Shown here: positions 27,116-35,819 of the stretch, piece by piece
Position numbering within the stretch: the first letter of the stretch is position 1
How the letters are laid out: every line of letters begins with the position of its first letter
Source of the DNA: Psammoneis japonica
Lineage: Eukaryota
NCBI GenBank assembly: GCA_008632985.1
Contig: QPGO01000241.1
Location: 62,001-102,393, forward strand
Reading direction: 5' to 3'
Length of the DNA stretch: 40,393 nucleotides
Made by a program: the position numbers and the translations under genes
Notes under the pieces: generated by a model
Told to the model about the DNA's origin: nothing
Database searches by the model: none
Seen by the model: only the letters and a program-made list of their open reading frames with translations

Positions 27116-27479
27116 GCGAAGCCTTGTTGTATCAATGGCTGGGTTCACCGCCTATTCCTGGAGCTTCTAGTGATTATCCCTTCTCAAATTCCAGGAACAA
27201 GGGTAAAAAGCATGTGGCATGTGAGAGTTCGGATCGAGCATAATAAAGGGAAGCACACCTTTGGTCCATCCGCTTTTTTGCAGCATAATTGATGCTCAGC
27301 GATAGAATGCAAAGACAAAAGCATCTGTCAAGTCAAAAGAGTTCTTACCTTTGGTTCGAGCAACACTGTGTGCACTGTTTTCTTCTGTGTTCTGTGTGAT
27401 TGCATATCTTTTGTGATGGGATTGATTTTGACAGGACAAAAAGGCCTCACACTGAGGTTTCTGGAATTGATTCCAGCAA

Positions 27480-30400
27480 CATCAAGTCAGGTGTTGGAAA
27501 ATCTGGTGTGGAGCTGTGCCATCACACCCACTCTGAGCACCGATAATTGAATTCTGACCAGAAGGCCGAGCTGAACGAATGGCGTTCCTCGGAGGGTTCC
27601 TCTGCCACAAGAAGGAGGGCAAGGCCAAAACGCCGCCGACTGGTTCGCAGAAGAAAATCAAGAAGATGATTTTGGAAGCTGTGGCCTCCAAGCCAGCCTT
27701 CTGCAAAAAGAAAGAAGAGAAGGCCAAAATTGAGTCCAATGATCCCAAGGCAGGCACCCACCTGCTTTCCCATGTCCAGGTGGCCTCGAACCCGGCTCCG
27801 GCTCCCCCACCGTGCCGCTGCCTCCTCCGCCACCACCGACGGCAACTACGGCCCCGGCCCAAGCCTTGGTGGTGCAGTTCAAGCCACCCTTGGTGTCGTT
27901 GCAGTCAATCCTGCAACGTGCCGGCAATGAGAAACGAAATGTCGGGATGGCAATGCATTCCGACATCTCTTCGCTTGAGGGGAGAAAATGTGCCATCTGT
28001 GCCATGGAATTGCAGTCGTCGATTCCCAATCATTCTGTTATAAAATTCATTGCTTGCCATGCAATCTCTGATGTCACTTCAGAGACAACAACGAGACTCA
28101 AGACGAGGGTGAAACGTGCACCAAATTGGATTCTCACACCAACACAGTCGTTGTTGGCAAGGGATCCTGTGTGCACCAAATGACACCGGTCACACAGCTC
28201 AAGTCAGTGCCTTCAATCCAGAGTGTGAGTCAATGAAAGATGTTAGAATCATTGATGCTCTCCTGGCATGCAACTGCCCGCACTCTCTGAAAACTCACCT
28301 GCTGGTCCCACACAATGCCCTGCACATTCCCGTGATGGACCACAATCTGTTGCCACCCTTTGTGCCACGTGAGGCAGGGGCAACAGTCAATGATGTTCCC
28401 AAGACACAAGTCCAAGGAAGGGAACCAACAGAGGACAATCACGCTCTTGTGTTCCTGGAATTGAAGATGAGGATCCCACTGTCTCTGTGGGGAGTGTTCT
28501 CATGCTTTCCATCCAGATGACCTGCAACAGATGAGATGCAAGACACAGAAGATGCATTGGTCTTAACTCCATCTGGGCACTCCTGGAACCCTCACTCAGA
28601 CTCCCATGCTTGCAATGAGGAAAGCATGTTGGACTGGGAGGGGAACATGTCAGACAAACGAGTTCGAATCAGGATCTTGGTTGAAGACCTGCCTGATGAG
28701 GACAAGGAGCTGCAACTGTCCTCCATGACATCAAGTGTTGAGTCCAGGATTGTTGACTCCAAGTTGTCAGTCGTTGATCGTTTTGAGGCTTGTGATGACT
28801 TGAGTGGATGCCCAGGAGTCATGTGGGAGGCCGACAACTCCCACGCTGTCATGTGTGACATCTCTGCCACTCTTGATCCCATCTCCCTTGCTGAGGGTTT
28901 ACAAGATCAACGTGATGTTGGGGCTTTTGCATCATCAGCAGGATCTGCAATGGCAGGACTTCAAGATGACTCAGATCAAGGTGACAATGTTGATTTTGAC
29001 ATTTTTGAGGATGTCCAACTTGAGGACATTGTTGAAGATCTCATGGAGCATTTTGAATCCGACACCAAGGTCCACGTTGGAGGAACCACTGCATTCAAGT
29101 CTAAAGGGTCATCTCCAGAACACCTGTCCAAGATCTGGAGGACAAGCACCAAGGATGCCAAGCGGACCATTGACAACACCATTCAACTCCTCCGGCACAC
29201 TCAAGACCCATCTTTTTCATCAAACTGTTCTGCAAATGACAGGATGTGGCGGCATCAACAAATTGCCCAGCACTTCTTCATGGATGCTTTCTTTGCAAGC
29301 AAGAAGGCTGGCAAGTCCACATGAGGGTGCTCATGCATGCAGCCATTTGTTGCTGACAAGGGATTTGTCCATGTGGTGCCTGTGCATGCCCAATCTGAGA
29401 TGCCTCAGGCACTCAAGATGTTTGCCAAGGAAGTGGGTGCACCGGAGGCAATCACATGTGACAGTGACCCAGCACAGAAATCCAATGAGATCCAACAGTT
29501 TCTTCACTCCATTGGAGCTGGCCTTTGGCTGCTGGAGGAAGGGATGCCATGGTCAAACCGTGCTGAGCCATGCATTGGTTTGCTCAAGGAAGCGGTGCGC
29601 AAGGACATGAAAGAGTCCTTGTGTCCTTTGCCTTTCTGGGATTGCTGCTTTGAGCCACTGGCATGAATCAACAACTTGACGGCCCAGAAACTCTTTCAAC
29701 TTGAGGGGAGGAATCCACACTTCTCTGTGACAGGGGAGGAAGGTGACATCTCCAACATTGCTCAGTTTGGATGGTGTGAATGGCGCCACTTTCATGAGCA
29801 CACCAACCCCTTTCCGTTCAATCGCGAGGTCCTTGGGTGTGTGCCAGGTCCTGCAAAAGGAGAAGGGAATGACATGGCTCAGTGGGTGCTGAAGGGAAAT
29901 GGCAATGTTGTTCCATGACATTCCATCTAGCCCCTTTCAGTTGCCGAGTTGAATGGCGACACTGAGAAGTGCAAGCATGAGATTTTTGACCAATGCATTG
30001 AATCACACTGGGGCTCTGAGACTTGTTCCGTGTCTTCTGCAGGCAAGCAGTTCCTTTCGCATGGGGATTCAGACAAAAAGCCCAGGGAACTCTCTGAATT
30101 CGATGACCCAGTTGACGCTGCTGGGAATGCCATTGATCTGACCCCTCTGTGTGACCAGCTCATCCACACTGAGGCAGCTCTGCCCCAGGGTGATGTGATC
30201 TGACAGGCTCGCATCATTGGCCGGTCTGTGGATTCAGATGGTCGGTCGGTCGGCACGCACAATGACAACCCGATCATGAACACTTTGGCATGCAAAGTTG
30301 AGTTTCCTGACAGGGAGGTGAAGGAATGTGCCACCAATGTCATCACTGAAAACTTGCTCTCTCAAGTTGACTCGGAAGGCTGCACTCTCAATGTTTTTGA

Positions 30401-34363: not shown

Positions 34364-34920
34364 GTGGAAAATTTTGACGAGGCTGAAGCAATTGAGAAAA
34401 AACCCGACACCAAGTGCTCCCTCCATTCCAAAACAAGAGCCACTTTCGTTTTCATCAATGGGCCATTGAAGTTGCCAAATCACGCAGGATTGACGCAAAG
34501 TCCGCAAGTGCCTTTTTGCTGCGACAAATTTTTCACACAAAAAATTTTGCCAAAGCTGAAAGCGCAAGGGGCCAGGTGTGACAAAAAAAGGGGGGAGGGA
34601 GCGCTTGCGCTTGCACTGTGCTCCAAGCCAGCTTTGTGTGCAGCACGCTGCCAAGGTCCAGCAAGAGACTTTGCAACATGATGGACACTGCAAAGGATGA
34701 CTTTGAAACAATGGTGCACCACACCAACTGGAGTGATGGCGCACTTGAGACTGAGCATTCTGCACGAAGAGCAGCCAGAAAATGCTTGAGCATGGCAGCT
34801 CAGCTCAAAGCTTGGCGAAGAGCACAGCATGTTGTCGCGGCTGAGCAGGTTCTTCAGGCACGCTGCTCCAACAAGCACGCTGCACAAAGGGCTGTGGCTC
34901 AGATGGCAGCAGCGCACTGA
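34364..34920 (+). pseudogene. Degenerate coding-like sequence of unknown family
   Basis: Two overlapping ORFs (34364-34681, 34618-34920) with protein-like K/A/E-rich helical composition and no Tyr. Confidence 0.35.
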
Positions 34921-35819
34921 CAAGGATCCCCAAGCTGCAAGCACAGACTGGGCTTGATGGTGGCCAATGGTGCCAAACTTGAATCAGCATTTTAATTATA
35001 CGAAGCTGAATAACTAAGATGCAGGTAGTCTTCTTCATTGACATAGGTTTCGGTTATATCTGAAGACATGAATTCATCTACGGAGGTGAATTGTCGGACG
35101 TAGTTTTAGCGATCGGAAATTGTTCCAACGGAAAGATTCACTACGGCAAATTCGGTGTTGTTCTACTTACGGTGGCGATTATGGTGCCATGCAAATTCAT
35201 GGTATGTAGGGCCTACACCATCTACCGGTATCATGGATGCCAACAATCTGATCGCATCAATCATCAACACGCTTTTACGAACCGCTCTGAAAGGTGCTGT
35301 ACGATGAATGCGAAATGACGATGGAAGAGATTATTCAGTTTCTCATCTCCGACACAGTGGCTCTTTTGGACATGTTAATGCAAGTGATGACATGGAGGTA
35401 ATGAGACGATAATTGTAAATGCCACCGCCTCAACCCGCATTGGATATTATGAGAACCCCGAACACGTGCTCGTGTTGCCAAGACACATCAAAAGGATCAA
35501 GGCGTCAAGCAAAAAAACGCGAAGAGCAATCGTGGTTTAGAAAAAAACGCGAAGAGTGACCATGCTTTCCAAATGGATTCATCTCATTGTGTTCACACAA
35601 AGCAAACTAAAACGCAAAACAAAACAACACCAAACTTTCGACTATTATCATAAGCATTGATAGCAACAGAGTCATTACTTCTAGTTATTACGCACTCGTG
35701 TGTCGTAACTCCCGTTAGAGAGTAAGTATGAGGCAGCGTTAACATTGATATCTGCATCATTTTCTCAATGAGACGCTTCTGACGATAATACTTTCTCTTT
35801 CTTTTTCCCTGCTCATTGT

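Follow-up and report, generated by a model that had tools for sequence, protein, structure and literature searches.

Two TpA-erased, CpG-poor domains in a diatom-like genome, probably produced by TpA-directed A:T to G:C hypermutation alongside CpG decay

What kind of process can strip almost every TpA from several kilobases of DNA and leave the neighbouring sequence intact? The question is raised by a 40,393-nucleotide stretch of Psammoneis japonica contig QPGO01000241.1 (the whole stretch analysed, hereafter the window), whose genes have diatoms as their closest named relatives. A preliminary description, made from the letters alone, had reported that TpA was nearly absent over ~7.5 kb (27410..34985) and had proposed a second mutator, distinct from 5-methylcytosine (5mC) deamination, converting A:T to G:C at TpA on both strands of silenced transposons. 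Sliding-window observed/expected (O/E) ratios, computed across the window, resolved sharp TA-poor, TG- and CA-rich domains. The deficit proved stronger than had been claimed, the limits agreed within 4–7 bases, and a second domain was detected:

27406..34992, no strand assigned: D2, a TpA-erased, CpG-poor block (dinucleotide counts and list of TA positions)
16007..24229, no strand assigned: D1, a second TpA-erased, CpG-poor block (dinucleotide counts)

D2 contains 33 TA, where the flank O/E would predict 294 and base composition 474. The count for D1 is 35, the flank O/E predicting 361. The pooled flanks display a TA O/E of 0.64 and a CG O/E of 1.04; the domain cores display a TA O/E of 0.06–0.07 and a CA O/E of 1.7, with TG and CA both at 1.6–2.0 in D1 and D2. 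Core CG O/E is 0.12 in D1 (TG 1.96; CA 1.72) and 0.29 in D2, where 1-kb windows over 27501-34001 gave 0.02–0.14 for TA, 0.22–0.53 for CG, 1.60–1.83 for TG and 1.32–1.79 for CA. Both blocks (7.6 kb for D2 and 8.2 kb for D1) end abruptly; at the right end of D2, for example, zero TA over 34138-34992 is followed by six TAs inside 34 bases. The 3.2-kb spacer between D1 and D2 has a TA O/E of 0.69 and bears a gene, represented by a spliced contig of the RNA-like run X2 over 24631-27184, which is not evidence on expression.

Some further observations concern the window as a whole. Long false open reading frames (ORFs) fill D1 and D2 on both strands, and run X2 barely covers either domain. A kinesin is also encoded in the window, its matches in the ESM Atlas being kinesin clusters only.

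The TpA-erased DNA of D2 includes a recognizable retroelement:

28134..32480, + strand: copia-type polyprotein remnant in one frame, with 0 frameshifts and 11 in-frame stops (10 TGA, 1 TAG)
30639..31799, + strand: reverse-transcriptase (RT)-bearing ORF P0001 (386 amino acids) with the mutated motifs CMDN, ALHG and NVHL

The tblastn high-scoring pairs (HSPs) of all 88 full-length homologues lie in one frame within 28134-32480, with no frameshift across the 4.3 kb of the remnant, and residues 65-1468 of homologue P0124 align to it in one HSP (52% identity). The best homologue of P0001 (E = 1.2e-135; 60% identity) belongs to a set of proteins carrying PF07727 (RVT_2), one of which is additionally annotated with PF00665, and it is this homology along the polyprotein length to PF07727-carrying copia polyproteins that assigns the element to Ty1/copia. 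A Pfam search of the P0001 ORF itself gave no match at E <= 0.01, and the D2 ORFs gave chance-level matches only at E <= 1. No long terminal repeats (LTRs) were found around the element with three methods: a direct-repeat search, blastn (word size 9) and a local alignment that tolerates transitions (its score being 37.5, vs 33.4 +/- 3.1 for shuffles). The diagnostic codons that had been quoted for the element are all present at the positions given for them, namely TGC ATG GAC AAT (CMDN, 31368-31379), ALHG (31209-31220), NVHL (31110-31121) and CWEH (31347-31358).

The direction of change was read from 683 columns conserved in at least 80% of the 88 intact homologues, which are protein homologues at 50–60% identity and not sister copies of the same family. 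These relatives carry Tyr where the D2 copy has Cys or His, and the suggestion that conserved copia Tyr residues had been replaced in this manner extended to every such column: Tyr was kept at 0/32 positions (19 Cys, encoded by TGY; 12 His, CAY; and 1 Arg, CGT). Conserved Arg was kept at 15/54 positions, its replacements including Cys (10), His (9), stop (6), Gln (5) and Trp (4). Other residues were largely kept (Phe 31/33; Trp 20/21; Asn 25/27; Lys 30/33; and Gly 53/58). A single TA>TG/CA change accounts for 47 of the 173 replacements in the remnant and a single CG>TG/CA change for 63, the remainder being 18 other transitions, 22 transversions and 23 multi-step changes. Taken together, A>G and T>C replacements number 47 in TA context vs 9 outside it, as predicted by the proposal of a TA-specific mutator. 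The proposed symmetry of the two strands also held, the TA-type events on the + strand comprising 29 A>G and 18 T>C without any strand-coordinated clusters (24 runs vs 23.3 expected). The CG events formed 24 runs vs 32.4 expected (P = 0.02).

The loss of TpA can be separated from the loss of CpG, most directly at the ends of D2, where TpA is gone and CpG is largely retained:

27406..28187, no strand assigned: left edge of D2, TA O/E 0.09 and CG O/E 0.60
34138..34992, no strand assigned: right edge of D2, 0 TA in 855 bases and CG O/E 0.52

Over the domain edges as a whole, TA O/E is 0.00–0.09 alongside a CG O/E of 0.33–0.60, so the two decays are separable, and the differing extents of TpA loss and CpG loss bear out the earlier distinction of the mutator from CpG decay. 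D1 and D2 also share the same TA floor (0.06–0.07), while their core CG differs (0.12 vs 0.29). The two losses respond differently to flanking bases. TTAA occurs in the domains at 0.90 of its flank density, the corresponding values for ATAT, ATAC/GTAT and GTAC being 0–0.014, and 57 of the 68 surviving TAs lie in TTA or TAA, the flanks having 394 of 1094 in these contexts (Fisher p = 6e-15). Among CG sites, the best survivor, CCGG, reaches only 0.5. Part of the TTAA excess could represent new mutations rather than immunity.

D1 shows no obvious sign of being a transposon, and its features, together with an undepleted comparator outside both domains, are as follows:

18036..19144, + strand: decayed paralogue of a CUE-like/Cys-rich-repeat host gene (blastn 72–74% identity; tblastn E = 2.7e-46)
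16119..17061, + strand: helicase-associated (HA, PF03457) remnants, from Pfam matches within D1
35772..40118, + strand: undepleted host gene, the comparator for D1, with a weak CUE-like match and tandem Cys-rich repeats

The HA match at 16582-17061 exceeds the Pfam cut-off (E = 9.4e-7; 29.5 bits vs 28.4), that at 16119-16517 being weaker (E = 0.0093); apart from these remnants and the weak CUE match, the ORFs of D1 and the flanks gave chance-level Pfam matches only at E <= 1, and neither Pfam nor homology searches found a mobile-element or retroelement domain in D1. Outside 18156-19483, D1 is single-copy at a k-mer depth of ~60-80. The comparator retains TA (O/E 0.25–0.6) and CG (~1.0), and only one of the window's two paralogues is the mutated copy. 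Judged against this single 72%-identical paralogue over 577 aligned columns, 11 of its 15 TA are CA or TG in D1 and 0 remain TA, and 26 of its 32 CG are TG or CA and 1 remains CG; the opposite direction, TG/CA in the paralogue and TA in D1, was found once. There are also 15 TG<->CA double changes, which a simple model does not predict. Transposons had been proposed as the targets, and this agrees with the copia polyprotein in D2; the host-type gene remnants of D1 suggest that the targets were not transposons alone.

The preliminary description had known of no system with this spectrum. One has since been described, and a literature search found it as the only report of such a mutator: Mettrop et al. 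(April 2026, bioRxiv 10.64898/2026.01.13.699255; cited here from the available part of the preprint) describe, in Bigelowiella natans, a hypermutation directed at the TpA sites of integrated viral DNA. Of 302 single-nucleotide mutations recorded in mutation-accumulation lines, 231 were located in the two viral regions; A>G or T>C changes made up 230 of these, every one on TpA, and the de novo rate in the targets was ~1000-fold above that of the rest of the genome (10.64898/2026.01.13.699255). As in the window, TpA is changed to TpG or CpA on both strands within discrete regions, and TpA-poor, CpA+TpG-rich clusters, of which D1 and D2 are examples, are enriched there for reverse-transcriptase and transposase domains. 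The part of the preprint available also interprets the process as genome defence and names an ADAT2-like adenine deaminase as the candidate enzyme, in line with the proposal below.

There are differences. B. natans is a chlorarachniophyte (Rhizaria), whereas the named relatives of the window are diatoms. According to the same part of the preprint, the targets measured there were giant-virus and virophage insertions, which retain a high TpA content (3.3% and 9.2%), whereas in the window a copia element and a duplicated host gene have been mutated to saturation. The preprint mentions CpG 0 times, whereas CpG decay here occupies the same domains, and its available part gives no flank-base rule such as TTAA immunity. 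Finally, B. natans provides a measured rate and the present case an end state only. The kind of process is thus already known from B. natans; what is new is a second lineage, detail of the sequence context and the link to CpG decay.

Other known mutators resemble the present pattern in part. Fungal RIP likewise produces dense transitions with sharp limits and no indels in a repeat or duplicate, inactivates it irreversibly and affects host gene duplicates along with transposons. RIP, however, works in the opposite direction, from CpA to TpA, making stops and AT-rich DNA (PMC2621366, in the part available), whereas here TpA is destroyed, stops are removed, G+C is about unchanged and one paralogue of two is mutated; the RIP signature of C>T at CpA with TpA excess is absent, core TA O/E being 0.06–0.07. 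Decay of CpG by 5mC deamination fully fits the CG>TG/CA component, in which Arg CGN becomes Cys, Trp, His, Gln or stop, and its signature is present as a CpG deficit, a TG/CA excess and CGN codons changed to TGN or CAN. Methylation of transposable elements through DNMT5a has been described in diatoms (PMC9998398, in the part available). This decay cannot remove TpA and covers the 63 of 173 replacements noted above but not the 47 of TA type. APOBEC (on cDNA) and ADAR (on dsRNA) similarly kill retroelements by storms of context-specific transitions, and ADAR prefers U 5' of the edited A (10.64898/2026.01.13.699255, Discussion, in its available part). These enzymes leave a one-strand signature and require an RNA or cDNA stage, whereas here both strands are mutated, including those of the non-retroelement block D1; a one-strand A>G pattern of ADAR type is not seen, 18 of the 47 TA-type events being sense-strand T>C.

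A-to-I editing of a retroelement transcript at UA, carried out by an enzyme of ADAR or ADAT type, could nevertheless have preceded its reverse transcription and insertion, so that the inserted copy carried the changes from the outset. Such editing before integration would account for the abrupt domain ends and for the absence of indels (no frameshift in 4.3 kb), and the public homologue P0173 counts in its favour, having kept Arg at 52/53 and Tyr at 9/30 positions, with a strand bias at conserved Tyr columns (18 Cys vs 3 His) and intact CpG codons. Editing of the genomic RNA predicts A>G only, however, and the sense strand of D2 combines 29 A>G with 18 T>C (at Tyr columns, 19 Cys with 12 His). 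TpA loss is just as complete in D1, where host-gene remnants but no retroelement domain were found. Among the 40 sequence differences listed, at least four inside D1 are allelic differences at TA sites within a single-copy domain, a kind that tells against this route. According to the part of the preprint available, moreover, resident single-copy DNA of B. natans acquires this spectrum through de novo mutation. We therefore consider this route very improbable. A single deaminase of dual specificity (A after T, C before G) might instead lie behind both losses, making two processes unnecessary. Both losses do coincide in D1 and D2 and end in TG/CA, and the available part of the preprint (10.64898/2026.01.13.699255) refers to reports of ADAT2 enzymes that act as deaminases on both A and C of DNA. 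One enzyme is nonetheless hard to reconcile with the differing extents at the domain edges (TA 0.00–0.09 vs CG 0.33–0.60), with a common TA floor over core CG values of 0.12 and 0.29 or with the survival of TTAA but of CCGG only to 0.5. Among public homologues, moreover, either decay occurs without the other, P0362 having kept Tyr at 16/18 positions and Arg at 10/20, the converse of P0173, and the B. natans lines had 1 other change among 231 (in the part of the preprint available). Taken together, these points make it very improbable.

Could the bases simply be wrong? TA and CG are palindromic, like typical modification sites, and modified TA and CG might have been misread as TG or CA. Contigs built from k-mers of run X1 (word depth 56–64) reproduce the sequence, differing from D1 at 2, 13 and 2 positions over 1470, 2434 and 2049 bases, respectively, although X1 derives from the same sample as the likely assembly source, so that it is not independent confirmation, and the records do not give its library type, a point in favour of an artefact. 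The depth is one that we would not expect from error-prone long reads. A misread T on each strand also predicts strand-discordant calls and the presence of some CG, whereas CG is depleted; Illumina reads underlie the mutation calls in B. natans (in the available part of that preprint); and Tyr-free copia RT fragments are present in three separate assembly collections (ENA, Logan and JGI/IMG), a screen for Tyr-free, Cys/His-rich proteins also retrieving such ORFs from protein databases. One further candidate, a JGI metagenome locus (L001) that was the single match to the Tyr-free public homologue P0423, was rejected as a chance match (19 residues, on a contig of 61–64% G+C with normal TG/CA). 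Since the X1 contigs agree and Tyr-free copia fragments recur in other assemblies, we regard an artefact as highly improbable. The least probable explanation of those considered is that the blocks are foreign DNA from a genome that avoids TA and CG by composition or selection. A dinucleotide signature of their own is typical of foreign DNA, but the polyprotein is broken exactly at the TA- and CG-bearing codons of its 88 relatives, with 11 in-frame stops, and D1 copies a neighbouring host gene that contains TA and CG.

We consider instead, with a probability of roughly 0.8, that two transition processes, independent of each other and each specific to its own sequence context, acted on the DNA itself in the two discrete domains, the one at TpA being of the same kind as in B. 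natans. The mutator postulated earlier, acting on A:T at TpA of both strands and distinct from 5mC deamination, withstood every test that was run, and this reading takes in the observed spectrum, context, both-strand action, sharp limits, separability from CpG loss and lack of indels. The first process would change TpA to TpG or CpA (i.e. A>G on either strand) and would have run near to completion domain-wide, except at TTAA and, partly, at YTAA/TTAR; the second would be ordinary methylated-CpG decay to TpG/CpA, incomplete and weaker at the domain edges. Their targets would be a copia copy with adjoining repeat DNA in D2 and a block with a decayed duplicate of a neighbouring gene in D1, the spacer gene between them and both flanks having been left untouched. 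We infer that the domains were targeted and silenced, and that a host enzyme, brought there by the marks of silenced chromatin, was the cause. A first guess at this enzyme would be a polynucleotide adenine deaminase of TadA/ADAT2 type, which would act on transiently single-stranded DNA of either strand, the resulting inosine being fixed as G at replication. The outcome would be irreversible inactivation, with Tyr changed to Cys or His and TA-containing signals lost. Unlike RIP, the first process would create no new stop codons; since TA erasure removes TAA and TAG, long false ORFs would persist.

A wider reading, on which we judge the odds to be even, is that TpA-directed A:T to G:C hypermutation is a genome defence widespread among marine protists, of which the diatom-like stramenopile studied here would be one, and that it is in function the mirror image of fungal RIP. 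It would act on resident double-stranded DNA in marked domains, erasing RTAY and leaving TTAA immune, would saturate retrotransposons and duplicated host genes, and would have its targeting, not its chemistry, in common with CpG methylation; Tyr-free copia ORFs would be its footprints across public marine assemblies.

In practical terms, gene finders will call false ORFs in TA-erased blocks as genes. The immunity of TTAA would provide a flank-base rule that any candidate enzyme must reproduce, and the reach of the process would extend beyond viral insertions to retrotransposons and host-gene duplicates. The sharing of domains with CpG decay, from which TpA loss is yet separable, points to targeting through a shared chromatin mark rather than to shared chemistry. 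If true, a diatom-like genome mutated to this saturated end point would add a second major lineage to the range of the process, an argument for a defence that either is old or has evolved more than once.

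A 1-kb sliding profile, followed by enumeration of all TA and CG positions in the window, delimited two blocks in which TpA was almost gone and TG and CA were raised about twofold:

16007-24229, first TpA-erased block (D1), from the TA/CG position list
18036-19144, within D1, decayed copy of a CUE-like, Cys-rich-repeat gene with its undepleted counterpart at 35772-40118
27406-34992, second TpA-erased block (D2), from the TA/CG position list
35772-40118, + strand, host gene matching a CUE-like domain weakly, with extended tandem repeats rich in Cys and Asp

D2 contained 33 TAs, against 474 expected from base composition and 294 at the observed/expected ratio (O/E) of the flanks (TA O/E 0.64), confirming the near-absence of TpA noted in the preliminary description, the quoted codons of which all match the sequence. 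D1 contained 35 (582 and 361 expected respectively). The domain limits are sharp and TpA loss is near saturation: TA is missing from the final 855 bases of D2 and then occurs six times within the next 34. CpG O/E was 0.12 in the core of D1, 0.29 in the core of D2 and 1.04 in the flanks, and the G+C content of the blocks was approximately that of the flanks. Many overlapping ORFs of 120–386 amino acids lie on both strands of D1 and D2 because TAA and TAG are gone, and gene finders are likely to predict these false ORFs as proteins. The window holds 13 Ns (one at 14337 and a run of 12 at 14378-14389), which are small assembly gaps.

The 386-amino-acid ORF at 30639-31799 of D2 matched 283 proteins at E ≤ 1e-5, the best 120 of which belong to PF07727 (copia-type reverse transcriptase, RT) and share 50–60% identity with it. 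All 88 homologues of at least 1300 amino acids among these best 120 aligned to D2 in a single reading frame within 28134-32480, and residues 65–1468 of the public homologue P0124 gave a single HSP; the copia copy therefore carries substitutions, including 11 in-frame stops, and no frameshift. The process consists of substitutions alone, without indels. No LTR pair was found for D2 by three methods. Word depth in the reads reached 150–360 over 27452-32763, marking the family as multi-copy. The RT ORF also contains a perfect 42-base tandem duplication (30767-30850), which is younger than most of the point mutation; a contig built from k-mers of read set X1 lacks 47 bases here, jumping from 30786 to 30834, and thus other copies or alleles may be without the duplication.

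The direction of change was read at 683 conserved columns, those to which 40 or more of the 88 homologues align and on which 80% or more of the aligned ones agree. Tyr was kept at 0/32 columns (19 TGY Cys, 12 CAY His and one CGT Arg) and Arg at 15/54 (replaced by Cys, His, stop, Gln and Trp), while Phe (31/33), Trp (20/21), Asn (25/27) and Lys (30/33) were largely retained. One TA>TG/CA step explains 47 of the 173 replacements and one CG>TG/CA step 63, the remainder being other transitions (18, including nine A>G or T>C in contexts other than TA), transversions (22) and multi-step changes (23). Neither of two outcomes named beforehand as refuting the idea was observed: enrichment in TA context is present (47 versus 9), and no active relatives with the Cys/His residues were seen. 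Read on the sense strand, 29 of the TA-type events are A>G and 18 are T>C, the two kinds being interleaved in 24 runs (23.3 expected); the process acts on both strands. Together with the complete loss of conserved Tyr, these counts support the earlier proposal of a second A:T>G:C mutator at TpA besides CpG decay.

The process is specific for TpA, with flanking bases modulating its action. With strands collapsed, the density of TTAA in D1 and D2 was 0.90 of that in the flanks (19 sites versus 33), followed by CTAA/TTAG (0.37), GTAA/TTAC (0.13), CTAG and ATAA/TTAT (0.10 each), ATAG/CTAT (0.04), CTAC/GTAG (0.03), GTAC (0.014), ATAC/GTAT (0.009) and ATAT (0). The 68 surviving TAs are a non-random sample, 57 lying in TTA or TAA compared with 394 of 1094 flank TAs (Fisher p = 6e-15). 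We read TTAA as immune to the mutator, although some surviving TTAA sites could instead be new mutations. CpG survivors showed a milder and different flank dependence, the best being CCGG at about 0.5.

D1 contains helicase-associated domain remnants besides the decayed gene copy, and read depth indicates that it is single-copy outside the paralogous part. Transposons appear not to be the only target: D2 holds a copia copy, and D1 holds a host-gene duplicate, with no mobile-element domain found in that block. Over an alignment of 577 columns with the undepleted paralogue, none of 15 paralogue TAs is still TA in D1 (six are CA and five TG) and one of 32 CGs is still CG (19 are TG and seven CA), with a single case in the opposite direction (TG or CA to TA). 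Beyond these expected changes, comparison of 18275-19098 with 36065-37702 revealed double transitions at one dinucleotide, paralogue TG being CA in D1 at eight sites and CA being TG at seven; the ancestor may have been CG or TA with change in both copies, or the sites may have cycled via CG/TA. The host gene has a TG O/E of 1.7–2.0, a TA O/E of 0.25–0.5 and normal CpG, and its tandem repeats include a 159-base period over 38745-40083; this bias looks like codon composition rather than hypermutation, since its repeats retain Tyr codons.

TpA loss is co-located with CpG decay, yet separable from it. In the outer 0.7–1.0 kb of each block TA O/E is 0.00–0.09, whereas CpG O/E is 0.33–0.60 (a third to three fifths retained), and a TA floor of 0.06–0.07 is common to D1 and D2 despite unequal core CpG. 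The public homologue P0173 keeps Arg at 52/53 conserved sites and Tyr at 9/30 (18 Cys, 3 His), a strand-biased Tyr loss. Conversely, P0362, which among 50%-cluster representatives is nearest to the RT of the window, keeps Tyr at 16/18 conserved sites and Arg at 10/20 (Cys 4, His 3, Gln 2), a case of CpG decay without TpA loss. The block edges and these homologues, each with one decay but not the other, point to two separate processes.

A read artefact is an unlikely source of the signature. X1 contigs, with a word depth of 56–64 equal to that over a flanking gene, differed from D1 at 2, 13 and 2 positions over 1470, 2434 and 2049 bases; probably accurate reads thus agree with the assembly, but X1 derives from the sample of the likely source and does not amount to independent replication. 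Among 40 listed differences between X1 contigs and the window, from a table with 764 further rows, 20 swap one of CG, TA, TG and CA for another, and TA takes part in six of these. Independent support against an artefact comes from the protein databases. Among the best 150 representatives from a search that covered 1.8 billion proteins, six, from ENA, Logan and JGI/IMG assemblies, had < 1% Tyr and 4.5–5.3% Cys (medians of the 150, 4.3% and 1.7%). Conserved Tyr was wholly lost, chiefly to Cys and His, in P0381 (0/14 kept), P0413 (0/9), P0423 (0/11), P0451 (0/14), P0436 (0/11), P0482 (0/8) and P0478 (0/6). These seven, with P0173, P0200 and P0494, are copia polyproteins or RT fragments whose conserved Tyr are mostly or wholly Cys and His, and all ten appear to be traces left separately by one mutator.

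For the kinesin motor encoded at 3-1442 the best matches had 54–63% identity, the four named ones being a Bacillariaceae species, Phaeodactylum, a Thalassiosira species and an MMETSP 'Gra' entry, presumably the diatom Grammatophora. A lineage-restricted ORF (12566-13984; best match 70%) matched Amphora coffeaeformis, Pseudo-nitzschia multistriata and one partial Polarella entry, so that diatoms, including the presumed Grammatophora, make up six of the seven named relatives. No near-identical protein was found for either. The source is probably a diatom or a near relative of diatoms, and is distinct from Bigelowiella. Between D1 and D2, a contig from the RNA-like read set X2 spans 24631-27184 (-) with two gaps (25394-25471 and 26275-26381) and looks like a spliced transcript of the gene in that interval. 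A repeat of ~40–50 bases occurs in four copies (2078-2126, 3459-3509, 4230-4267 and 5478-5518; 89–92% identity, both orientations) within 3.5 kb of ordinary-composition DNA.

The preliminary description knew of no system with this spectrum; a full-text literature search found one report, on Bigelowiella natans (bioRxiv 10.64898/2026.01.13.699255). According to that report, 231 of 302 nuclear single-nucleotide mutations in mutation-accumulation lines fell within integrated giant-virus and virophage regions. Of these 231, 230 were A>G or T>C changes, every one of them on TpA, at a rate of ~6e-7 per site per generation and in only a subset of lines. The report also describes 124 TpA-poor, CpA+TpG-rich clusters, with reverse-transcriptase and DDE domains in excess in TpA-poor CDS, and its authors propose that a DNA adenine deaminase resembling ADAT2 is responsible; CpG is not mentioned in its text. 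For diatoms, PMC9998398 states that DNMT5a loss in Phaeodactylum removes methylation and de-represses young transposons, and that 31 of 60 species carry DNMT4 genes related to RID and without a known function.

We infer that TpA loss is caused by an enzyme that would be recruited to marked chromatin and would deaminate adenine 3′ of T on whichever strand is exposed, the inosine then being copied as G. tRNA adenine deaminases act in a U33-A34 context, matching the TpA target, and early TadA-derived editors preferred a pyrimidine on the 3′ side of the edited A. A mispairing modified thymine or biased repair may be responsible instead of adenine deamination. TA>TG/CA changes destroy TAA and TAG and can create no stop codon, and inactivation therefore proceeds via loss of Tyr and of TA-bearing signals. 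This kind of TpA erasure has already been described, just recently, in another lineage; the present case adds to the anatomy, with a further domain besides D2, a duplicated host gene among the targets, saturation, the rule centred on TTAA, CpG decay that can be told apart from TpA loss, and footprints in public assemblies.
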